Assembly (NCBI GenBank): GCA_964431075.1
Contig: CAYSID010000002.1
Span: forward strand, 1-58,242
Origin: an uncultured Gammaproteobacteria bacterium
Lineage (GTDB): Bacteria; Patescibacteriota; Microgenomatia; JAMCZE01
DNA length: 58,242 nt
Direction of reading: 5' to 3'
In this document: in pieces, positions 39,177-50,643 of the stretch
Layout: each line of letters starts with the position of its first letter
Numbering within the stretch: the stretch's first letter is position 1
Made by a program: the position numbers and the translations under genes
Notes under the pieces: model-generated
Told to the model about the DNA's origin: nothing
The model's input: only the letters and a program-made list of their open reading frames with translations
Databases searched by the model: none

Positions 39177-39249
39177 TCCTCTGTAGCTCAGCTGGTAGAG
39201 CGGCTCCCTGTTAAGGAGAAGGTCCGAGGTTCGAGTCCTCGCGGAGGAG
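39177..39249 (+). tRNA. tRNA-Asn (anticodon GUU)
   Basis: TCCTCTG-TA-GCTC-AGCTGGTA-GAGC-G-GCTCC-CTGTTAA-GGAGA-AGGTC-CGAGG-TTCGAGT-CCTCG-CGGAGGA-G. It has the same UCCUCUG 5' end as E. coli tRNA-Asn. Confidence 0.9.
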
Positions 39250-39546
39250 CTGAATTGGTCTTAATCTGACCATGTTGGCGGTCTTTAAGGCATTAAATAT
39301 TGGTGTGGGCTTTGCTTCAACAATTACTTTGTTATCCACAACGAACGGGAATTCTGATAGATTATCGAAACAACCAAGAAAGTCAGGAAAATTTTTCTTT
39401 AATTCTTCTAGCTTTGTGTATTTTGATAAATCTGCCGTTGCTTCATCAACCCAAAATGCATCTACTTCTCCGTCTGAAAAAGACCCGTATTCCTCAAGTG
39501 ATAATAAGTTCGGAATACTATATGTTTTCCTTAGATTAGGTAACAT
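39211..39546 (-). CDS. hypothetical protein (first ORF of the A+T-rich island; 3' end overlaps tRNA-Asn antisense)
   Basis: 111-aa ORF with no motif recognised. The last 13 codons are antisense to the tRNA, so the true end or the reality of the gene is uncertain. Confidence 0.35.
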   Translation of the reverse strand: MLPNLRKTYSIPNLLSLEEYGSFSDGEVDAFWVDEATADLSKYTKLEELKKNFPDFLGCFDNLSEFPFVVDNKVIVEAKPTPIFNALKTANMVRLRPIQLLREDSNLGPSP

Positions 39547-39724: not shown

Positions 39725-39937
39725 TTGACTATGAAGAAAGACGAAGTATCGGAACTATTAACTTTAGAAGAAGCTGCTAAAAAATTAAAGGTCAGCGAGC
39801 AGACTTTAAGGCGTTGGGATAACAGCGGCCATTTTAAAGCGGTAAGAGTTGGCACAAGGCGAGGCCTGGGTGATCGAAGATATCGGGTTAAAGACATTGA
39901 AAATTATACTAAGCAAAAAAATACAAAAAAAAGATAA
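39725..39937 (+). CDS. MerR/excisionase-type helix-turn-helix DNA-binding protein
   Basis: 70 aa. LLTLEEAAKKLKVSEQTLRRWDNSGHFKAVRVG...RRYRVKDIENY is the HTH_17/MerR-excisionase pattern. Confidence 0.75.
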   Translation: MTMKKDEVSELLTLEEAAKKLKVSEQTLRRWDNSGHFKAVRVGTRRGLGDRRYRVKDIENYTKQKNTKKR

Positions 39938-39982
39938 TTTACTAACGAGGAAAATAGAAAATTAAGAAAATAAAAGAAAATT

Positions 39983-42205
39983 ATGACAAATCAAAATAAG
40001 GCTTCTTCGGAAGCAGATGCCAGAATTATTGTTGACCGACTGCTTCGGGAAGCGGGCTGGGATATTGAAGACAAAAATCAGGTAACCACCGAGGAATCGA
40101 TTAAAGACGGCAGAGCTGATTATTTACTTCTTGATAGCCGAAGCCGGCCCTTGGCTGTTGTAGAGACAAAAAGGTTTTCCAAAGACCCATATACTGCCAA
40201 AGAACAGGCTGAAAATTATGCTAAAGAACTACTGGCTCCCTTTATCTTCCTTTCCAATGGCACCGATACCTACTTTTGGGATTACAACAAAGCTGATGCC
40301 CGTTTAGTTGATTCTTTTTTCTCCCGTTTTGATTTGGAAAGAATTGCTACTTTAAGAAAGTATCAGAAACCGCTATCTACGATCCCTGTTCTGGATAAGT
40401 TTTTCTTTAAAGGAAATGAGATAACGGTTAGACCTTATCAAAAAGAAGCCCTGCAAACGATAGATAAAGCATTAGGGGAAAATAAACGTCGTTTGTTAGT
40501 CGAAATGGCAACAGGCACAGGCAAGACTTTAGTGGCCGCGATGATGATTAAGAGACTGTTTCAGGCAGGATTGGTAGAAAGGGTTTTGTTTTTAGTTGAT
40601 AGGATTGAACTTGCCAATCAAGCAAAAGAAACTTTCGACGACTATCTTTCTGAATATCCCTCAATTGTTTTATATGGCGGGAAAAGGAGTAAAGAAGGCC
40701 AGATTGTTATTGGCACGCTTCCCACAATCCAATCTCAAATAGACGCTTTTACCAGCGGTTATTTTGATTTGGTAGTTACTGATGAATGTCATCGGTCAAT
40801 TTACAGCGTCTATCGCTCACTCCTTACCCATTTTGATGCCATCCATGTTGGCTTAACTGCTACCCCCAGCAATCTTATCGACAGAAACACCTATGAGTTT
40901 TTTAACTGCTGGAATCCTTTAACCAGAAAGGGAGAACCAACTTTTATCTATGGCATAAGGAAAGGGATAAATGATGGTTATCTGGCTCCTTACAAGGTTT
41001 ATCACGCCAGAAGCAAGATCTCGCTGGAAGGCATCAATTGGCAAGGAGAAGATTACGAACCGCAAGATTTGGAAAGAACGATCACGGTTGAAGACAGAAA
41101 TAAATTGTTTGTTCAGGAGTTTAAGGAAAACGAAGAAAAAAGAGGCGGCGATCATCCCAGAAAAACAATTGTCTTTGCCATCACTAAAAAACATGCGGCT
41201 CAACTGGCAAGATTTTTCAATGAAATGTACCCCGAATACAAAGGTAAGTACGCCGAGATTATTACTACCGATACTTTTGATCCCCAAAGAGCCATTAAAC
41301 GCTTTAAAAAAGAACCTTTACCTGTAATTGCGGTTTCGGTGGCCATGCTTGATACCGGTTTTGATTATCCGGCAGTAGAAAACCTGATGATGTGTCGTCC
41401 TACCCGTTCTCCTACTTTCTACCAGCAAATGAGAGGTCGAGGTTCCCGGCTTTGCCCGCAAGTCGGTAAAAAAGAATTCCTTATTTATGATTTTGTGGGT
41501 AATGCCGAATACTTTAATGATGAGGGTTACGATCCATTTGAGCAAAAGAAAGTTGCTACCAGAATGAAAGTTGAGGAAGTTGAAAAGGAAGAAATAACAG
41601 AAGAACAAATACCGGAAGCTATTGTTAGGCAATTTGTTACTATCCCCTTGGGTCAAGCCCGTGATGAGTGGATAGAAAGAAGATATATCGAGTTTGGACC
41701 GGAAGGAGAAAAAGTTGATGCCAGAGAATACAAAGATAGATTTGCTGAAGAAGTTAAGAAATTGGCTGATACCAATGAGATTGTGATTAAGCTCAGGCAA
41801 AAACAGGATGTAACTGATGATGAAATTCAAGAATTAGGGCAACTTCTCAATCACCCGGAATTCTTTTTCAATGAGAACAATTTAAGGCAAGCCTATGACC
41901 AGCCAACAGGCAATTTAGTTGATTTTGTTAAAAGCGCTTTAGGAATGCATAAGTTCCCCACCAGAGAAGAAAGAGTTAGTAGCGCTTTTGATGCCTGGAT
42001 TATCCAAAAGAATTTTGCTCCTGAACAAGTGCGGGTACTAAGAATGCTTAAGAATCAGTTCTTGGCAGGAAGTAAGGCGGATATTTCAGACTTTAACCGA
42101 CCACCGATTTCTCAATATGGTGGCTTACAGTACGCCATCAAAACTTTTGGTGAGGATGGTTTAAAACAAGTTGTTGATGATTTACAACAAGGAGTATTCA
42201 AATGA
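39983..42205 (+). CDS. hsdR: type I restriction enzyme R subunit (short HsdR with EcoEI-R-like C-terminus)
   Basis: N-terminal PD-(D/E)XK (DGRADYLLL...LAVVETKR). SF2 helicase Walker A EMATGTGKT, DEAH-like VTDECHRS, motif VI QMRGRGSR. Helical C-terminal domain. Confidence 0.9.
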   Translation: MTNQNKASSEADARIIVDRLLREAGWDIEDKNQVTTEESIKDGRADYLLLDSRSRPLAVVETKRFSKDPYTAKEQAENYAKELLAPFIFLSNGTDTYFWDYNKADARLVDSFFSRFDLERIATLRKYQKPLSTIPVLDKFFFKGNEITVRPYQKEALQTIDKALGENKRRLLVEMATGTGKTLVAAMMIKRLFQAGLVERVLFLVDRIELANQAKETFDDYLSEYPSIVLYGGKRSKEGQIVIGTLPTIQSQIDAFTSGYFDLVVTDECHRSIYSVYRSLLTHFDAIHVGLTATPSNLIDRNTYEFFNCWNPLTRKGEPTFIYGIRKGINDGYLAPYKVYHARSKISLEGINWQGEDYEPQDLERTITVEDRNKLFVQEFKENEEKRGGDHPRKTIVFAITKKHAAQLARFFNEMYPEYKGKYAEIITTDTFDPQRAIKRFKKEPLPVIAVSVAMLDTGFDYPAVENLMMCRPTRSPTFYQQMRGRGSRLCPQVGKKEFLIYDFVGNAEYFNDEGYDPFEQKKVATRMKVEEVEKEEITEEQIPEAIVRQFVTIPLGQARDEWIERRYIEFGPEGEKVDAREYKDRFAEEVKKLADTNEIVIKLRQKQDVTDDEIQELGQLLNHPEFFFNENNLRQAYDQPTGNLVDFVKSALGMHKFPTREERVSSAFDAWIIQKNFAPEQVRVLRMLKNQFLAGSKADISDFNRPPISQYGGLQYAIKTFGEDGLKQVVDDLQQGVFK

Positions 42206-43716
42206 GTAAAGTTTCAAAACAGGAATTACAGTCAGTTATTAACCAGATTTGCAACAAACTCTGGGCAGCGGGATTAACTAACCCCATTACCTATATTGAA
42301 CAGATTTCCTATTTCTTCTTTTTAAAGATGCTTGAGGAATGGGATAATCAGAAAGCCAATGAATCTAGACTTACCGGGAATAAAAATGGGTATGAATCAA
42401 TCTTTGAAAAGGAAAATGAGAAGTTCCGCTGGAGTGAGTGGACACATATTGCTGACAATACCAGGATGTTTAAATTCGTCCGTGACGAAGTGTTCCCTTT
42501 TATGGCAAACCTGCCCGGAACAAATGAAAATATCAGAAGGTTTTTTGCAGACGCTAGGTTTCAGATCCCTGATGGCGTGGTGCTTCGGGACGTCGTTGAT
42601 AAGCTAAGAGATATTTCTTTTATTGAACTGGACGCTGATGTTAAAGGTGATTTGTATGAATATCTTTTAAACCAGTTAACTACTTCTGGTAAAGCCGGAC
42701 AATTTAGAACTCCCAGACATATTATTCGCACCATAGTTCAATTGGTTAACCCTCAAATTGGAGAAACTGTTTTAGATCCTGCTTGCGGTACTGGTGGCTT
42801 TTTACTTGGAGCTTTTGAATACATAAAAACTTGTAACTCTGATCCCAGCAACACAACCGAATATCAAAATGGCAACGGACAGACAGTAAAAAAAGGCCCT
42901 GGAGATAAACTTTCTCCAACACAATGGCAATTTATGCAAACAGATGCTTTAACCGGATTTGATGTTGATGCTTCCATGGTGAAGATTGCCACCATGAACT
43001 TGATTTTGCATGGCTTGGAAAAATCTCAAATTATCAGACGAGATTCAATTGCGGGCAGTCCTGATGATTGGGATGAGCGAGAATTTGATATTGTACTTTC
43101 CAATCCGCCCTTTGCAGGTACTATTAACAAGGAAAGAGTTAAAAAGAACCTTCCGGTTCAGGCTACAGACACAACGATCCTTTTCCTAGGATTAATGATT
43201 GAAGGATTAAGGCAAGGCGGTAGAGCGGGGGTAGTTGTTAACGAAGGAGTTTTGTTCAACCGCAATAAAGCCGCTAAAGAGTTAAGACGATATTTGATGG
43301 ACAGAAGGAATTTAGTGGCGGTTGTTTCTCTCCCCGGTGGTGTTTTTCAACCATATTCGGGTGTCAAAACCAGTGTTTTGTTTTTCAATAACGATGGCAA
43401 GAAAACAGAAAAGGTTTGGTTTTATGATGTCCGCTTTGATGGTTTTGAATTGGCTACCCAAAGAAGACCATCTCCCGATAAGAACGATTTACCGGATTTG
43501 ATTTCCAAATGGAAAGACAAATCGGATTCAGAAAGAAGCTGGTCAGCCACCACAAAACAAATAGAAGAAAACGACTTTATCCTTTCAGCCTCTGCATACA
43601 GACCGATTACTGAAGATGAAACCCAACACCGAGACCCAAAAGAGATATTTAAGGAAATTAAGGAGTTAAATAAGGAGTCTCAAGAACAGTTAAAGAAAAT
43701 TGAAGAATTTATATGA
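42202..43716 (+). CDS. hsdM: type I restriction-modification N6-adenine DNA methyltransferase subunit
   Basis: HsdM N-terminal domain (LWAAGLTNPITYIEQISYFFFLKML), AdoMet motif I DPACGTGGFL, catalytic motif IV NPPFAG. ATGA overlap with hsdR. Confidence 0.95.
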   Translation: MSKVSKQELQSVINQICNKLWAAGLTNPITYIEQISYFFFLKMLEEWDNQKANESRLTGNKNGYESIFEKENEKFRWSEWTHIADNTRMFKFVRDEVFPFMANLPGTNENIRRFFADARFQIPDGVVLRDVVDKLRDISFIELDADVKGDLYEYLLNQLTTSGKAGQFRTPRHIIRTIVQLVNPQIGETVLDPACGTGGFLLGAFEYIKTCNSDPSNTTEYQNGNGQTVKKGPGDKLSPTQWQFMQTDALTGFDVDASMVKIATMNLILHGLEKSQIIRRDSIAGSPDDWDEREFDIVLSNPPFAGTINKERVKKNLPVQATDTTILFLGLMIEGLRQGGRAGVVVNEGVLFNRNKAAKELRRYLMDRRNLVAVVSLPGGVFQPYSGVKTSVLFFNNDGKKTEKVWFYDVRFDGFELATQRRPSPDKNDLPDLISKWKDKSDSERSWSATTKQIEENDFILSASAYRPITEDETQHRDPKEIFKEIKELNKESQEQLKKIEEFI

Positions 43717-44408
43717 GCTTAAATATTAATTTGATTGATACAATTTTGGCAATTGGTTCCGTCTCTGGATTATTAGTTTTACCTTATACGATTGTTCAAG
43801 CTTCCAAGAAAAGACCTCGGTTAAAATTTGACTTTTCAGGAATGAGTGGAAGCGGAGTAAAAAAAAGTGATGCCGTTGGTGAATATTACCGTTTTGAATT
43901 TTCTGGCACGATCAAAAATCGTTCCACAGAGACAAACTCAATTTCAAAGATTTATCTCGTTGTTTGGGCAGATAATAAAAAAAGAAATTCTGCCCTGAGG
44001 CTTGGTTTTGGCGGGGTTTTATTAGATTCAAGTAAAAATGTATTATCTTTACCTTTAGAATTGCCATCAAGAACAGGTAAAAAGCTGGAAATAATTTTTG
44101 AAATTCCAGTTACGGGCACATCAGACGAAAGACTACTTAAAGAGTTTATTCCTGTCGGTAATAGTGGTCGTTTTTATTTACCTAAGCACAAATATGAGCT
44201 TTGTTTTGAGGACACTGATGAAAACTTCTTTGATCAACAAGGTAGATTAAGAAATTTAAATGAAATTAACCTAAGATGGACTCTCCCCAACACAATAAAA
44301 GAATTACAAAAAGGCAATATTGCTCCGTTTTTAAAACATATGTTTCAGATACAAAAATCAAGAATATTATTTTCTATAAAACGAATTAGTTATCAGATAG
44401 GATTATGA
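43713..44408 (+). CDS. unknown membrane-anchored protein X1, inserted between hsdM and hsdS
   Basis: 231 aa with ATGA overlaps at both ends. N-terminal TM (IDTILAIGSVSGLLVLPYTIV), then a beta-rich domain (YYRFEFSGTIKNRSTETNSISKIYLVVW...LELPSRTGKKLEIIFEIP...YELCFEDTDENFF). No known family recognised. Confidence 0.7.
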   Translation: MSLNINLIDTILAIGSVSGLLVLPYTIVQASKKRPRLKFDFSGMSGSGVKKSDAVGEYYRFEFSGTIKNRSTETNSISKIYLVVWADNKKRNSALRLGFGGVLLDSSKNVLSLPLELPSRTGKKLEIIFEIPVTGTSDERLLKEFIPVGNSGRFYLPKHKYELCFEDTDENFFDQQGRLRNLNEINLRWTLPNTIKELQKGNIAPFLKHMFQIQKSRILFSIKRISYQIGL

Positions 44409-45562
44409 ATACTTGGCAAACTAAAAAATTAGGAGACATTACCGAAATTAATGGAGGAGGAACACCACCCACAAGCAAAACTGAATATTTCAGTGGCGAT
44501 ATACCATGGTTTACTCCTTCTGAAATTACTTCAGGTACAGTTTCAGTACTGAATAACAGTCAAAGACAAATTACAGAAGATGCGATGCGGTTTACAAAAG
44601 TAGCCGAACAAGGAACAGTTTTATTATCAAGCAGGGCAACGATTGGCAATGTTGGGATAGTATCTGATAGGTCAACTTATAACCAAGGAATAAAAGGATT
44701 AACCCCAAAAAAAGAATTAAGCCATTGGTATCTTGCATATTGGTTGTTAGCGAATAAAAAGAGGTTGGAAAGTCAATCTCATGGAACAACATTTAAAGAA
44801 TTGAGTACAACTGCCTTAAAAAAGTTTGATATTTCAGTTCCACCGCTTTCCATTCAACAACAAATAGTTGAGAAAATAAACGCAATCAGAAAATTGCAGG
44901 AATTAAATAATAAGGAAATTGAAAAAGCGGTGGAATTGTTTAAAACACAGCTTTCTAATTGTTTTAAATGGCAAGAGCAATGGAAAAAGATTAAGCTGGC
45001 AGAGATATGTGATGTGAGAGATGGTACGCATGACAGTCCAAAATACCAACCTTCTGGTATTCCACTCATAACATCAAAGAACTTGAAAGAAGATTTAATC
45101 GATTTTACAAATATCAATTACATTTCTGAAAAAGATCACCAACAAATAGTTAAAAGATCGTTTGTAGAGAATGGAGATATTCTTTTTGGGATGATTGGGA
45201 CAATAGGTAATCCCGTTATTGTTGATACTGAAAGAACGTTCAGCATTAAAAATGTCGGGTTAATAAAGTTCCCAAACAGAAAAATAGTTAACAATTTGTT
45301 TGTGAAGTATTTCCTTCAAAGTCCGTCGTTAGAAATAGAAATAAAAAGACTGTCGCGTGGAGGAACACAAAAATTTGTTTCGCTAGGAAATTTAAGAAAT
45401 CTTCTTGTGCCATTACCATCTCTAAAAGAACAGGAAAAAATTGCTATGGAGTTAAACAATATTAGACTTTTCAATTCCAAACTTAATTTAAAAGGGATTA
45501 AATTATCAGAACTTTTTGAAAGTGCTCTAAATAAATTTATGAAGAGAGAACTGATCAATTAA
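44405..45562 (+). CDS. hsdS: type I restriction-modification specificity subunit
   Basis: Two target-recognition domains (GGGTPPTSKTEYFSGDIPWFTPSEI and RDGTHDSPKYQPSGIPLITSKNL). They are separated and followed by the conserved helices PPLSIQQQIVEKI and PLPSLKEQEKIAMEL. Confidence 0.93.
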   Translation: MNTWQTKKLGDITEINGGGTPPTSKTEYFSGDIPWFTPSEITSGTVSVLNNSQRQITEDAMRFTKVAEQGTVLLSSRATIGNVGIVSDRSTYNQGIKGLTPKKELSHWYLAYWLLANKKRLESQSHGTTFKELSTTALKKFDISVPPLSIQQQIVEKINAIRKLQELNNKEIEKAVELFKTQLSNCFKWQEQWKKIKLAEICDVRDGTHDSPKYQPSGIPLITSKNLKEDLIDFTNINYISEKDHQQIVKRSFVENGDILFGMIGTIGNPVIVDTERTFSIKNVGLIKFPNRKIVNNLFVKYFLQSPSLEIEIKRLSRGGTQKFVSLGNLRNLLVPLPSLKEQEKIAMELNNIRLFNSKLNLKGIKLSELFESALNKFMKRELIN

Positions 45563-45565
45563 CCT

Positions 45566-46231
45566 ATGAATTATTGGCAAAGTTTACTCGATTTATCACA
45601 AGCAGTATTTTTCCCCCAGATATTGAACATTGTCAATGTTGTTTTGATATTGCTTACAGTCCTGGTGACTTATTTGTCATGGCATACTGCTAAAAGAGCG
45701 AACGAATTACAGTTACTTCCTCTTCTTGCTGTCTATTTTAGGGGTAAAGCCTTGAAAGATAGAACGATTAGGATACGAAATATTGGCAAGAGTCCAGCTT
45801 ACGATATAAAAATAGAGTCCTATCTGAACATTATTAAGGATATACAGCATGTGTGGCGATTAGATTTGTCTTTGAGTGGTACAAACGTCTTGGTGCCCGA
45901 CGAGGAGAAAGATTTAAAGATGAGGGCAACGGACAACGGGAAAGAAGCCGATATGTCAGAATTTATGGTTTTTCATCTTGACCCAGAAGAAGAACATAAG
46001 AGAGAAAGAGTTGGCCTATTGCTAACGTTTAGAAATGCGGAGGGAAATTATTACTATTCTGAGGTGGAAACTGGCGCAGGTGGTTTGTTCATAAAGCCTG
46101 CAAGAAAATATAACCTTTGGGGTAAGGCGTATGTAGGCTATAGACAATATTCGGAGAAAGTTTTATTGAAACTGTATGAATTTAAATGGAAATTTACTAA
46201 GCCTTATATTAAACAGCCAAAGAAGGCTTGA
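45566..46231 (+). CDS. unknown membrane-anchored protein X2
   Basis: 221 aa, starts 3 nt after the hsdS stop. N-terminal TM (ILNIVNVVLILLTVLVTYL), then RTIRIRNIGKSPAYDIKIES...VLVPDEEKDLKM...VGLLLTFRNAEGNYYYSEVE. The motif is shared with X3 and, more loosely, X1. Confidence 0.7.
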   Translation: MNYWQSLLDLSQAVFFPQILNIVNVVLILLTVLVTYLSWHTAKRANELQLLPLLAVYFRGKALKDRTIRIRNIGKSPAYDIKIESYLNIIKDIQHVWRLDLSLSGTNVLVPDEEKDLKMRATDNGKEADMSEFMVFHLDPEEEHKRERVGLLLTFRNAEGNYYYSEVETGAGGLFIKPARKYNLWGKAYVGYRQYSEKVLLKLYEFKWKFTKPYIKQPKKA

Positions 46232-46243
46232 TAAAAAATAATT

Positions 46244-47548
46244 ATGAAAGCACAGGATAAACCAAAATATGTTCAAGAGGCACGAGAGTTATATGGTTCA
46301 CTTGATGTAGATGCGTTGATTGATGACCCAAATAATTTAAAAACACTTGAGAAAATTAGTCGCCTGATAGCTATTTTTACTAATTTTTCCTATAACGACG
46401 GACAAGACTTGAAAGAATTACTATGTGAGTTCCAAAAATGGGCGAGGCGAAGTACGAGCATCGGTACTATAAGAAATAGGGCTACCGATATGCTCCAGTT
46501 TATTATTCAAAAAATAGAAGAAATGGATATTTATGTGATTGAAGAACCAATTAGGAAAAAACAAGAAAAAATTGTAAAAAGCTTGAAGGATGAAAACTTA
46601 TGGATGCAATCATCCCTAGAAGGTAAGGATTTACATATTTTGGTTGGAGAGAGAAATGCTAAAGCGGGTGAGCACGTCCATTTAATCAGCGATTCAGAAA
46701 CTGGCGAAATTAGAGTTGATGCTGACGATAAAACCCCCGATGAGCTTATAGAAAGAGTCGTTAGTATTACTACAAAACACGGCTCAACAATAGGGATTTC
46801 ACAATACGGAGTAAAAACAACAATGGAGTTTATCAATAAAGATACAACAGAAGACAAAGACCCTCCGATTTTATATGCCACTGGAATAAGACGAAGTGGC
46901 GGACCTCAAGGCCATTTTGATTACATAACGATTAAAAATGTTGGGAAAAATATCGCATTAGATATTCATTGGGGTATAAGGGCATTTGCCTATGAATGGC
47001 GACCATCAGAAGAGCCTTTTGAATTAGAACCAAATAAGGAAAAAGAAGTTGTTTTTCCCACTTCTTCCGAAAGAGTATTTAAAGAAATTATTCCAGAACT
47101 AAATGTAATAATGGAATATAAGGATGTAAATAACAAATCTTACTTTACCAGAAGGGAATTAAATCAACTAAAAGTTCCTTCGGGGGCATTTTATGAATTG
47201 AAAGCCGACACTTTCCACCCTCCTTCTATACTAATTGATGATGGATTACGATTGATTTCTGAACCTGTTCGCAATGGCGATAGAACTGAGGCAACTTTTA
47301 AGATTAATACCGAAGAAGGGGGTAAAGAAGTAAAGATCGGCTTAAGTGGCAGTCTTATCGCTGTTTTTGGTTTTGAGAATGACGGGTTAGTCAAACAAGC
47401 AATATTAGAATTAGCTCATAGATTGATTAGAAAAATGGTTAAATCGAAGACCCTATCTGACTATTGCTTTACTACTCACGATTTACCCGAACACCATATA
47501 AGTGGATTTGAAGCCTATGTACAATTAAGGAATAACATTACTTATTAA
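46244..47548 (+). CDS. unknown 434-aa protein X3
   Basis: Helical N-terminus. The central block FDYITIKNVGKNIALDIHWGI...ELEPNKEKEVVF...LNVIMEYKDVNNKSYFTRRE parallels X2. No catalytic motif recognised. Confidence 0.7.
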   Translation: MKAQDKPKYVQEARELYGSLDVDALIDDPNNLKTLEKISRLIAIFTNFSYNDGQDLKELLCEFQKWARRSTSIGTIRNRATDMLQFIIQKIEEMDIYVIEEPIRKKQEKIVKSLKDENLWMQSSLEGKDLHILVGERNAKAGEHVHLISDSETGEIRVDADDKTPDELIERVVSITTKHGSTIGISQYGVKTTMEFINKDTTEDKDPPILYATGIRRSGGPQGHFDYITIKNVGKNIALDIHWGIRAFAYEWRPSEEPFELEPNKEKEVVFPTSSERVFKEIIPELNVIMEYKDVNNKSYFTRRELNQLKVPSGAFYELKADTFHPPSILIDDGLRLISEPVRNGDRTEATFKINTEEGGKEVKIGLSGSLIAVFGFENDGLVKQAILELAHRLIRKMVKSKTLSDYCFTTHDLPEHHISGFEAYVQLRNNITY

Positions 47549-47549
47549 A

Positions 47550-48236
47550 ATGAATATGACTGATAACATTATTAAACTTTCGCCATCAACAATCAGTCTA
47601 TTTATGGAATGCCCGAGGTGTTTTTGGTTGCAGTTTAACAAAAATATCCATCGGCCAAGAGGGATATTTCCCTCACTTCCTGGAGGAATGGATGGAGTGA
47701 TTAAAAAATACTACGACACATATCGAAGACAAGGCAAACTACCACCAGAAGTTGATGGAAAATTAACTGGCAAACTTTTTGCAGATGAGAAATTATTAAA
47801 ATCGTGGCAAAGCAACTGGGAGGGGATTAAATATTTTGACAAAGAATTAAACGCTCTAATGAAAGGTGTCTTAGATGATTGTTTGGTTGATGGTGATACA
47901 TATATTCCCCTTGATTACAAAACGAGGGGTTATGATTTAAAAGAAGATTCTACTTCCTATTATCAGCACCAGCTTGATATTTACTGTTACCTGCTTGTAA
48001 AAAACGGTTATAAAGTTGCCAATTACGCCTATTTGGTTTATTACTTCCCTAAATTAGTAAAAGATAACGGGCAGGTCGAGTTTAATGTTGAACCCAAAAA
48101 AGTAGACACTGATATTAAACATGCCGAGCAATTATTTAAAGATGCTGTTACCTGTTTAAGAGGTCCAGAACCCAAAAGGCACAGCGACTCCTCGTGTGAG
48201 TTCTGTAATTGGGGTTTTGAAGCCTTTGGAGAATAA
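47550..48236 (+). CDS. Cas4-like PD-(D/E)XK nuclease with Cys cluster
   Basis: 228 aa. LSPSTISLFMECPRCFWL (N-terminal Cys), GVLDDCLV...YIPLDYKT (D...DxK), QHQLDIYCYLL (QxxxY), and C-terminal C-x16-CEFC (putative Fe-S ligands). Confidence 0.8.
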   Translation: MNMTDNIIKLSPSTISLFMECPRCFWLQFNKNIHRPRGIFPSLPGGMDGVIKKYYDTYRRQGKLPPEVDGKLTGKLFADEKLLKSWQSNWEGIKYFDKELNALMKGVLDDCLVDGDTYIPLDYKTRGYDLKEDSTSYYQHQLDIYCYLLVKNGYKVANYAYLVYYFPKLVKDNGQVEFNVEPKKVDTDIKHAEQLFKDAVTCLRGPEPKRHSDSSCEFCNWGFEAFGE

Positions 48237-48240
48237 AAAT

Positions 48241-50643
48241 ATGGATATACAGAAAATAAAAATTAAAGGTGATTATAAATTAGCAGATATTGTTCATGAT
48301 ATTGAAAAGGGAATCTTGCGGATTCCTCAATTTCAACGGGAATTTGTTTGGGATAAGCCCAGGGTAATAAAACTACTCGAAAGTATTTATCTTGAGTATC
48401 CGATAGGCTCTTTCTTCTTTTGAGATGCACCCAGAAAATACTATGATTTCTACCGGGATATTGCGGAGTTGGGACTGCCCAAACCGGACAAGTATGAGAA
48501 GATCGTTTTTATCCTTGATGGTCAGCAACGGCTTACTTCTCTTTATGTTACTGTTAAAGGTTTAACTTTATATGGCCGGGATTATAAAAAAATTTGTTTT
48601 GATTTAGATGAAAAAGTCTTTGTTGATCGGGCTCCTGATAATCAACGATTTGTTTCTTTAAGTGACCTATTATCCAGTGAACGTTACAGCGAAGTTTATG
48701 AAGGCTTAACTCCCGCAAGACGCAAGGCTGTTTATGAATGTTTGCAGCGATTTAACAATTATCCCTTTTCTGCGATTGATGTTCGGGATAAAGAACTGGA
48801 TGAAGTCTGTGATATTTTTGAACGGATTAATCAGGGTGGACAAAGGTTAAACCTTTTTGATTTGATTTCTGCCAGCACCTGGACGCCTGATTTTGATTTG
48901 AGATTAGCGGTTAAAGGAGAAAACGAGAGATTAAAGACAAAAGGATTTGGGGAAATTGACAATGAAGTTTATCTTCAGGCACTTTCTCTTATTGCCAAAG
49001 GCTCTTGTACCAGGCCGGTCCAACTGCAGCTTCGAGCTGAGGATGTGACTAAGTTTTGGCAGGACACAATTGATTCAATCTCTTTGGCAATAGATTATCT
49101 TAAAAGCTATTTAGGTGTAGTTAACTCCGTTTTTATTCCTTACCGAAGCATGATTGCTCTAGTAGCCTATCTTTTTTATAAAGCCAAGGGCAGGAGTTTA
49201 GACCATGAACAATCAGAGCTTTTAGCCCAGTGGTTTTGGCAAACTACTTTTTCTGAGAGGTACAGCGCCTCAATTTTAACTTTGATGACTGAGGATAAGA
49301 AACTGATGGATAAGATAGCTTCGGGGACAAGCGTTGGTATTAAATACCTCTTTGAGCTGGATATTGATACCCTGATTCAAATCCGCATGTACCGAAAGTC
49401 AGCTATCAAAAATGGTGTACTTTGTTTACTGGTTAAAAGAGAGCCTAAACATTTTAAAAACAACATTACCTTACCGCTTAAAGATGGCTATTATTCAGAC
49501 TTTAATAGTTCTGAAAAGCATCATATTTTCCCTAAATCCATTATCCAAAAAAATTATCCGATGATCATGGTTCACTCGCTTCCCAACTTCTGCTTTATCC
49601 CGGCAGAATTAAACAAAGAAATTTCCAACAAAAAGCCCAGCAAATATTTTGAAGAATACCAAGAAAGCAATCCTGATTTTCTTGATGCTTTAAAAACTCA
49701 CCTAATCAAATATGACGAGTCAATAAAACAGGACGATTATATGTCTTTTTTGGCTTCAAGGGCTGCCTTGATACTGGAGGAAATAACCAGAGCCACAGGC
49801 TCTAAAATTGGCCGGGTAGTAGCTGATAATGTTAACAAAGCCATTGATGATATTGAAAAAAGATTACGAGATTTTATTGATAAAAAGATGTTGGTTAAAA
49901 ATCCTGACTATTGGAAAAAATCTATGCCAAGCGATATTGTTGGCGTGGTTCGTCAAAGAGTAAATGAGTATCTATCCAAAGACCCTTCCAAGACGATTAA
50001 TGACTTTGGTTCAAGAGAGCTTCTAGATTTTATGGACATTATGGATTATTCCAAAGTCGTTCTTTTCAACTGGGATGTCTTTGGCTCTATTTTTAGATCA
50101 AAAGCGGAGACCGAGAAACGATTTTTAAACCTTAAGGAGTTTAGAAATGCAGTTAAACACGGGAGGGATGAAATTGTGCCTTTCATTCAAAAAGAGGGAG
50201 AAGCGGCATTGGAGTGGCTTTCTATTATTTTAGAGGAAGCGGAGAAAAATCCAGTAAGGTCTGTTAAGCCTGCCGAAAGCGAAGAAGAAACCATTAGTCG
50301 GGTTAAGAATGACTTTGTACAGAAAGCCGTTAGGCTTATATCGGAATGGATTGAGAAAGAATATTCTGATGGCAAATTAACGATAAAAAGGGGCAATGCT
50401 GGTTCGCACCGAAGCATAATGCAAGGCAAAAAGCTTATTCTCTTCTACTACTTTGCTGGCAATTGGGTTTATGGAGAACTACAGGCGACCACTCCTGATG
50501 AGCTTAAAATATTACAGGACAAGCTGTCTAAACCCGAATCAGTACTTGATAGAAAAAGTAAATATGGGCAGGTAAGATTCCATATGATTAACGAAGACGA
50601 TTTAGAGTTAGTCAAGGATATTGTAAAAAATAGAGTTAAATAA
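48241..50643 (+). pseudogene. GmrSD-like DUF262 + DUF1524 + HEPN fusion gene interrupted by one in-frame TGA (48421-48423)
   Basis: Track ORFs 48196..48423 and 48469..50643 are in the same frame. The read-through sequence is ...IPQFQREFVWDKPRVIKLLESIYLEYPIGSFFF*DAPRKYY...ILDGQQRLTSLY (DUF262/ParB-like). SSEKHHIFPKS...NFCFIPAELN is DUF1524 His-Me-like. EFRNAVKHGR is HEPN Rx4H (50143-50160). The TGA sits where this family normally has Trp. Confidence 0.75.

Follow-up and report, generated by a model that had tools for sequence, protein, structure and literature searches.

The question raised by this locus is whether three genes lying directly behind the hsdS gene of a type I restriction-modification (R-M) operon, in the 58,242-nucleotide stretch of contig CAYSID010000002.1 that was analysed as a whole (the window), form a single defence system. 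The genes encode a membrane protein (X2), a 434-residue protein (X3) and a PD-(D/E)XK nuclease resembling Cas4, and the original prediction grouped them into one module comprising a membrane sensor, an adaptor and an effector nuclease. This grouping did not survive a comparison with related loci, as the trio is found nowhere else and the neighbours of each gene vary. We instead favor, with a probability of about 0.6, a type I R-M island adjacent to a tRNA-Asn gene and carrying exchangeable cargo, where X2, X3 and the nuclease would be three independent units. Judged from its relatives, X3 is likely a new anti-phage protein, because its rare family swaps known cell-killing domains. The three genes form the tail of a defence island of ∼11 kb in what is probably a Patescibacteria (Candidate Phyla Radiation, CPR) genome, and the defence setting proposed at the outset is borne out by this R-M island. 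The three genes, and the parts of X3 discussed below, are as follows.

45566-46231, + strand: X2, 221 residues (open reading frame call)
46244-47548, + strand: X3, 434 residues (open reading frame call)
46244-46543, + strand: N-terminal helical bundle of X3, residues 1-100 (model, alignment)
46559-46843, + strand: middle domain of X3, residues ∼106-200 (alignment; low model confidence)
46856-47548, + strand: X3C module, residues 205-434 of X3, the conserved core of the family (model, alignment)
47550-48236, + strand: PD-(D/E)XK nuclease, 228 residues (open reading frame call)

The predicted coordinates of the three open reading frames are exact, and their tight packing is confirmed, with spacers of 3 nucleotides between hsdS and X2, 12 between X2 and X3, and 1 between X3 and the nuclease; another 4 nucleotides separate the nuclease from the GmrSD-like gene that follows.

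Co-occurrence and exchange of the genes behind hsdS

Loci were fetched around X3 relatives (78) and around relatives of X2 or the nuclease (17), and the island proteins of the window were compared by tblastn with the 78 X3-relative loci and 11 X2/nuclease-relative loci. At 90% identity the loci containing X3C reduce to 54 non-redundant clusters, and the X2 contexts to nine. Among these 54 clusters and nine contexts, the X2-X3-nuclease trio is found in the window alone, so that the co-occurrence of the three families expected of a module is not seen outside it. X2 adjoins an X3C protein in three of the 54 clusters (the window, L026 and L065, the last with the arrangement of L096/97), and four of them have a Cas4-like nuclease no more than three genes away. 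The nucleases outside the window are paralogues with 28-30% identity that are not next to X3 and occur on either strand. Because the trio is absent elsewhere, the partners of X2 vary and the orthologues of the nuclease sit in other places, the claim of one module is not supported.

A narrower version of that claim, with X2, X3 and the nuclease as a young sensor-adaptor-nuclease system restricted to this lineage, could draw on the co-directional arrangement of the genes, packed 12 and 1 nucleotides apart, and on the repeated presence of Cas4-like nucleases in related islands. We consider it hardly likely at all, as the trio was not met again among 98 fetched loci, close orthologues of the nuclease sit outside such arrays, and the tight packing runs along the entire array from hsdR to GmrSD rather than marking out these three genes. 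In addition, the closest relative islands exchange each gene independently.

This exchange is visible when the window is set beside its nearest relatives. In L001 and L079, hsdR and hsdM are 80-91% identical to those of the window; across the operon genes identity is 74-91%, and the islands are otherwise alike, while the genes after hsdS differ. The order in L079 is HTH-hsdR-hsdM-215aa-hsdS-X2-OLD-PDDEXK-GmrSD, placing an OLD-family nuclease in the position behind X2 that X3 occupies in the window. X2 is missing from L001, where hsdR, hsdM and hsdS are followed by an open reading frame of 108 residues and then X3. The type I operon of L095 has the same layout as that of the window and reads hsdRM-DUF3800-hsdS-X2, with unrelated genes after it. 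The position between hsdM and hsdS is just as variable, holding a protein of 231 residues (X1) in the window, a different 215-residue transmembrane protein in L079, a DUF3800 protein plus an 80-residue open reading frame in L095, and a 234-residue protein in L001. On this comparison of gene content, the conserved type I R-M operon appears to carry its cargo in two slots, the first lying between hsdM and hsdS and the second behind hsdS, and cassette exchange on a conserved R-M scaffold would explain the gene differences among related islands. X1 is nested in the type I operon of the window, and X2 and the relatives of X3 recur next to or near R-M genes in several genomes.

X1 itself begins with a hydrophobic helix, has a beta-rich body and ends in an amphipathic helix, an architecture analogous to that of X2, and it has no match in Pfam, NCBIfam, PADLOC or PHROGs. 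The idea that X1 is a paralogue of X2 was rejected, as no homology between them is detectable (hhalign probability 0.3%).

Constant modules and swapped effectors in the X3 family

The structural model of X3 (mean predicted local distance difference test score, pLDDT, 79.5) contains a confident helical bundle at residues 1-96, a low-confidence beta region at 102-204, and confident beta-sandwiches with helices at 205-434. The helical N-terminal domain and the sandwich described in the original prediction are thus both present in the model, and a poorly modelled domain of ∼95 residues lies between them. The absence of a named family for X2 and X3 was confirmed. X3 has no family match in Pfam, PADLOC or NCBIfam, and X1, X2 and X3 all remain without a match in PADLOC v2 at E-values up to 0.1. 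A profile search of PDB sequences with the X3 alignment gave nothing, and Foldseek searches of PDB and BFVD with the X3 model returned generic immunoglobulin-like sandwiches alone, with TM-scores of 0.1-0.4. The one match in PHROGs is weak (phrog_32564, E = 0.0076).

The homologue search yielded 129 relatives of X3, and an exhaustive profile search recovered 168 clusters, 89 of them at E-values up to 1e-10. The family is rare, since these are 168 clusters among 1.84 billion representative proteins. In the alignment of the relatives, the N-terminal bundle and X3C are kept and the stretch between them is exchanged. The middle is replaced by a TIR_2 domain in relatives of ∼502 residues, by an Mrr/LmuA-Cap4-like nuclease in those of ∼518 residues, and by a Cap5-type HNH domain in those of ∼480 residues. 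The two constant modules also occur apart from each other. The bundle is found with a PLD-like domain and no X3C, and X3C is fused behind AbiEii nucleotidyltransferases (462-475 residues), NTP_transf_8-like proteins (∼540 residues) and AAA_14/DUF4143 proteins. The AbiEii-X3C fusions are preceded in nine of nine clusters by a member of a 193-residue neighbour family (F1), which would correspond to AbiEi although it has no Pfam match, and the NTP_transf_8-like fusions by an AbiEi_2 protein in five of five clusters.

Database matches on these relatives fall on the effector segments alone and never on the bundle or X3C. In PADLOC they include a Cap5-type HNH (E = 5e-27), AbiEii (E = 3e-66), LmuA/Cap4-like nucleases, and the TIR model PDC-S66 as well as PDC-S01 and PDC-S05. 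A Pfam census of 102 remote hits counted Mrr_cat in eight, CAP12-PCTIR_TIR in four, TIR_2 in two, AbiEii and PLDc_2 in one each, and four HNH-type families with one member each. Because the relatives hold effectors in the same polypeptide, the X3 family looks self-contained, and the role assigned to X3 at the outset, that of an adaptor lacking a catalytic motif, does not hold at the level of the family. Exchange of effectors between constant modules is a signature that has repeatedly revealed real abortive-infection proteins.

The middle domain of the window's X3 has no Pfam match. It is a well-conserved, separate domain of ∼90 residues (consensus ...LWVxS...QHLxIGEK...KVHLI...TGEIRID...) that also forms the C-terminus of ∼180-residue proteins and appears in other architectures, with independent occurrences in P0363, P0385, P0394, P0349, P0366 and others. 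The first sandwich of X3C and its last ∼100 residues likewise each occur separately in other proteins. Two further arrangements of the modules were seen. Locus L047 (6590-8696) has an apparent split form, with the bundle in an open reading frame of ∼385 residues and X3C in the next one of ∼383 residues, and the last ∼100 residues of X3C appear as stand-alone proteins of ∼110 residues (P0337, P0368, P0381 and similar), some of which may be fragments at contig ends.

About 11 of the 24 X3 relatives that have the N-terminal domain have an R-M gene no more than three genes away. The R-M genes near X3 relatives are of types I, IIG, III and ISP, and stop and start codons often overlap. Other neighbours are GmrSD, a reverse transcriptase, Schlafen-like proteins, serine recombinases and TraG-like proteins, and no X3 relative was found in the IMG/VR viral contigs. 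As we propose it, X3 would act as a defence protein of the abortive-infection type within a single polypeptide, with X3C as the sensor or gate, the N-terminal bundle providing oligomerisation or docking, and the middle domain as the executing part.

X2, the Cas4-like nuclease and a possible partnership

In the AlphaFold2 model of X2 (pLDDT 81.5), residues 16-50 form a helix that includes a hydrophobic stretch, residues 54-180 a beta-sandwich, and residues 184-210 a C-terminal helix that is basic and amphipathic. The model agrees with the N-terminal transmembrane helix and sandwich initially predicted, and on this model X2 is a membrane-anchored beta-sandwich protein. Since lysine and arginine residues come after the hydrophobic stretch, the sandwich likely faces the cytoplasm. 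X2 has no family match in Pfam, PADLOC or NCBIfam and a weak one in PHROGs (phrog_11802, E = 0.0014). Its alignment found nothing in a profile search of PDB sequences, and a Foldseek search of PDB with the model gave generic immunoglobulin-like sandwiches alone (TM-scores 0.1-0.4). The homologue search returned 36 proteins, and their nine non-redundant contexts are listed below in gene order.

Window: type I R-M, X2, X3
L079: type I R-M, X2, OLD nuclease, PD-(D/E)XK, GmrSD
L095: type I R-M, X2, unrelated genes
L080/81: hsdS, X2, DUF3800
L082/83: type IIG enzyme, X2, Schlafen/AlbA_2-like protein
L096/97/65: SNF2-PLD, Eco57I-type methyltransferase, 237-residue protein, X2, HNH-X3C, DUF3800
L086/87: type III Res, DUF8168, Mod, DUF4145, X2, housekeeping genes
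L026: helix-turn-helix (HTH) gene, X2, X3
L084/85: X2, with no R-M gene nearby

In seven of the nine contexts X2 lies directly 3′ of R-M genes, which are of type I in L079, L080 and L095 as well as in the window, of type IIG in L082 and L096/97, and of type III in L086. The gene after X2 differs from one to the next, being X3, HNH-X3C, OLD, a Schlafen-like gene or DUF3800. In four loci, the window among them, X2 starts 1-3 nucleotides past a conserved hsdS end (...GELIN*, the asterisk marking the stop codon), and in L086 it follows the DUF4145 gene of the type III operon with a spacer of 0 nucleotides. The 66-nucleotide gap between the type IIG gene and X2 in L082 (7935-8000) encodes an hsdS end (...AFGEELVN*) that is nearly identical to the hsdS end of L080. 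The conserved hsdS end before X2 and this remnant in L082 together suggest that recombination carries X2 along with the 3′ end of hsdS. X2 also has a distant homologue (hhalign probability 92%) at 5833-6441 of L098, the 122-kb viral contig IMGVR_UViG_3300042922_000886. This protein has a transmembrane helix and an NIGKSPA motif; its neighbours are a DUF262/ParB-like gene and an XRE-type regulator.

This attachment to R-M genes raises the possibility that X2, X3 or both are accessory subunits of the R-M enzymes, serving as a membrane tether, a tuner, or a guard that fires when restriction is inhibited, in the manner of PrrC and EcoprrI. PrrC offers a precedent, as it is found embedded almost only within type I R-M systems according to the legend of Fig. 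6C in one study (Payne et al., bioRxiv 10.1101/2024.01.29.577857). The few nucleotides between hsdS and X2 in four loci, the position of X2 directly behind type III and type IIG operons elsewhere, and the frequent overlap of X3 relatives with the stop codon of an upstream methyltransferase gene would fit such a role. We hold it to be distinctly unlikely, as the R-M types concerned have unrelated subunit structures, X2 is also present in L084 and in the phage contig L098, where R-M is lacking, and about half of the X3 relatives with the N-terminal domain, along with most of the AbiE-type fusions, have no R-M gene near. Under the preferred reading of independent cargo, X2 would spread with hsdS as a tag-along of R-M operons, either as a defence protein of the transmembrane-effector type or as an R-M helper, and pairs with X3C proteins only occasionally.

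The original prediction also placed the same beta-sandwich in X2 and X3. One 14-residue motif is common to both (IRIRNIGKSPAYDI in X2, ITIKNVGKNIALDI in X3), and hhalign aligns X2 64-168 with X3 224-305 through three collinear motifs, at a probability of 14% and an E-value of 0.002. Homology of the two sandwiches is therefore possible on these alignments rather than established. Were it real, X2 and X3C could belong to a single superfamily of beta-sandwich sensors that guards R-M, senses either a phage product or the disturbance of restriction by a phage, and fires whichever effector is attached. The effectors would be the transmembrane helix in X2, the TIR, HNH, Mrr and AbiEii domains in the X3 relatives, and the ∼95-residue domain in the window's X3. 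We rate this proposal as quite improbable; if true, it would amount to a second line of defence like that of PrrC or PARIS, widespread in CPR bacteria.

The nuclease passes the PF12705 (PDDEXK_1) model at E = 3.8e-11 (43.8 bits, cut-off 22) and matches Cas4 of PADLOC at E = 2e-11, and scores 30.7 bits against the Cas4 equivalog TIGR00372, below the cut-off of 65. Its best match among solved structures is Cas4 4r5q, a weak one (E = 0.018), and it matches the phage family phrog_31195 over its full length. Residues C21, C24, D109, D110, D122-Y123-K124, Q141, Y145, C216 and C219 are invariant in 21 homologues. Of the Cas4 hallmarks originally listed, the D...DYK and QxxxY motifs are therefore confirmed, and the cysteine pattern is not. 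Cas4, AddB and Dna2 usually hold their cluster with one N-terminal cysteine and a C-terminal triad of the C...CxxC type. The nuclease departs from this 1+3 pattern, with conserved cysteines arranged as C21xxC24 ... C216xxC219 and C202 not conserved. The view that the enzyme is Cas4-like without being associated with CRISPR is upheld by its score below the TIGR00372 cut-off and by the lack of cas neighbours, and an array scan of the window found no CRISPR-like array, nor was there a Cas match among its 44 other open reading frames of at least 90 residues.

At least 2,408 homologues of the nuclease were found, mostly in Patescibacteria. Orthologues with 80% identity stand beside housekeeping genes of the UvrC/UvrA region in L088 and beside GlmS in L089, where a divergent type III R-M system lies upstream. 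Members with 55% identity, from long Patescibacteria contigs, have pyrE/pyrF, or FtsEX and Sua5, as neighbours. No cas genes were seen in five contexts of nuclease homologues. Going by the contexts examined, the family appears to be widespread and mostly outside defence islands, and the nuclease would process DNA ends in repair or recombination rather than serve as a dedicated effector of X2 or X3.

Several observations weigh against the preferred reading. No catalytic motif is recognisable in the middle domain of the window's X3, and its model is poor. A PD-(D/E)XK paralogue with 30% identity occupies the same position before GmrSD in L079, and similar paralogues lie 1-3 kb from X3 or X2 genes in L003/25, L010/44, L029 and L080; because they recur there, Cas4-like nucleases are enriched in such islands, and a link between the two is possible. 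X2 stands next to an X3C protein in three architectures (the window, L026, and HNH-X3C in L096/97/65), a recurrence above expectation for two rare families, and so a facultative partnership is possible. Many of the contexts also come from short metagenomic contigs.

Such a partnership would make X2 and the X3C proteins a facultative two-gene system: X2, as a membrane anchor or as an effector of the pore type, would dock the related sandwich of X3C, and the nuclease would be a bystander. In each of the three architectures the X3C protein follows X2 by 7-13 nucleotides, and the element in common is X3C rather than the N-terminal part; the three collinear motifs recovered by hhalign point the same way. 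The probability attached to that hhalign match is just 14%, six of the nine X2 contexts have no X3C protein at all, 51 of the 54 X3C clusters have no X2, and a spacing of 13 nucleotides likewise precedes the OLD nuclease in L079. We regard the two-gene system as unlikely on balance.

The island array and its place among known defence systems

The island to which this cargo belongs is an array of ten tightly packed, co-directional genes at 39725-50643 (+ strand), as seen from the open reading frames with Pfam and PADLOC, in the order HTH, hsdR, hsdM, X1, hsdS, X2, X3, Cas4-like nuclease and GmrSD. The features outside the three genes treated above are the following.

39177-39250, + strand: tRNA-Asn(GTT), immediately upstream of the island (ARAGORN)
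39725-39937, + strand: small DNA-binding protein of HTH_17/MerR type at the head of the array (PF12728, E = 2e-11)
39983-42205, + strand: hsdR, type I R-M (Pfam and PADLOC)
42202-43716, + strand: hsdM, type I R-M (Pfam and PADLOC)
43713-44408, + strand: X1, 231 residues, without a family, between hsdM and hsdS
44405-45562, + strand: hsdS specificity subunit (PF01420, E = 3e-49)
48241-50643, + strand: GmrSD/BrxU-like type IV restriction gene with DUF262 and an HEPN-like region (Pfam GmrSD_N, PADLOC HEC-05)

The GC content is 0.33-0.38 over 44-50 kb compared with 0.42-0.51 in the flanks, and outside the island the window carries housekeeping genes, among them Lon, tRNA synthetases, SecDF, RecJ and PilB/PilC. 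The tRNA-Asn gene may be an integration hotspot; no second copy of its 3′ end of the att type was found in the window, and no integrase was found. A 111-residue open reading frame on the minus strand (39211-39546) overlaps the tRNA and is probably spurious. The same HTH gene heads the related islands L001, L079 and L026, and the conserved 3′ end of hsdS (...ELIN*) abuts X2. Scans for promoters and terminators do not resolve the limits of the operon, because their counts equal those of shuffled sequence.

At the far end of the array, the GmrSD-like gene matches GmrSD_N in Pfam at E = 2e-12 and 1.5e-13, and the DUF1524-type C-terminal nuclease domain GmrSD_C at E = 0.058. It is broken by an in-frame TGA at 48421-48423, where homologues have tryptophan (GSFFF*DAPRKYY in the window, GSFFFWDAPRKYY in L079), and L018 and L079 carry intact homologues of 798-801 residues. 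Nonsense mutation, sequencing error and recoding are all conceivable explanations of the TGA. A non-standard genetic code was rejected because all other long open reading frames are intact under code 11. Matches of the hsd genes to mad1, mad2 and mad5 brought up a MADS system, which was also rejected; the scores of the type I models are far higher, and X1, X2 and X3 match no mad model. Outside 39.6-50.7 kb, one open reading frame of the housekeeping region strongly matches MzaA of PADLOC (E = 1.5e-69) and others match mad3 and mad8, probably through generic ATPase or kinase homology.

The phage defences of CPR bacteria are poorly known, and CRISPR-Cas is rare among them (PMC6509639). What this analysis changes is that a speculative three-gene system gives way to the X3 family and X2 as concrete, testable objects, with TIR and HNH relatives whose assayable activities can be used to learn what X3C senses.

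One of the closest parallels is the class of defence genes embedded in other defence operons. Genes within R-M, BREX, DISARM and Hma operons have been described under the term "guilt-by-embedding" (Payne et al., bioRxiv 10.1101/2024.01.29.577857), and TgvAB lies inside a type I R-M operon of V. cholerae (PMC11411939). The island resembles this class in the unrelated small genes nested in or appended to its type I R-M operon, in the exchangeability of that cargo, and in the GmrSD/BrxU-like (HEC-05) gene of its array. It differs in that X1, X2 and X3 match no HEC or PDC model in PADLOC v2, that X2 and X3 are added behind hsdS and not nested in the strict sense, and that the host is a CPR bacterium.

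Parts of the X3 family also touch other systems. One branch of X3C proteins carries an AbiEii nucleotidyltransferase, matched by PADLOC as given above and always preceded by F1, the presumed AbiEi, which recalls AbiE, a type IV toxin-antitoxin and abortive-infection system; however, the additional X3C of ∼230 residues is not covered by the canonical AbiEii models, and the window's X3 has neither an AbiEii domain (no PF08843 match) nor an AbiEi neighbour, so that the resemblance to AbiE is confined to the relatives of 462-475 residues. The alternation of Cap5-type HNH, Mrr/Cap4-like, TIR and PLD domains beside a constant, non-catalytic module recalls the Cap4, Cap5 and TIR effectors of CBASS and LmuA of Lamassu. 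Here, neither the bundle nor X3C is a SAVED, CARF or SMC-like module or matches a known fold, no cyclase or partner gene is conserved, and the middle domain of the window's X3 is not a recognised effector. The nuclease shares D...D-Y-K, QxxxY and four invariant cysteines flanking its core with the iron-sulphur nucleases Cas4 and AddB, while its CxxC...CxxC pattern, which may bind iron-sulphur or zinc, the absence of cas1, cas2 and a CRISPR array, its abundance among housekeeping genes of Patescibacteria and its match to phrog_31195 set it apart.

R-M operons with exchangeable defence cargo are already known, as are constant modules with swapped effectors. New here are the CPR bacterium as the host of such cargo, the bundle and X3C as constant modules without a family or fold match, and, from the gene neighbourhoods, the association of X2 with three different R-M types. 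Both the X3 and the X2 family broaden the view of R-M operons as vehicles for exchangeable defence genes.

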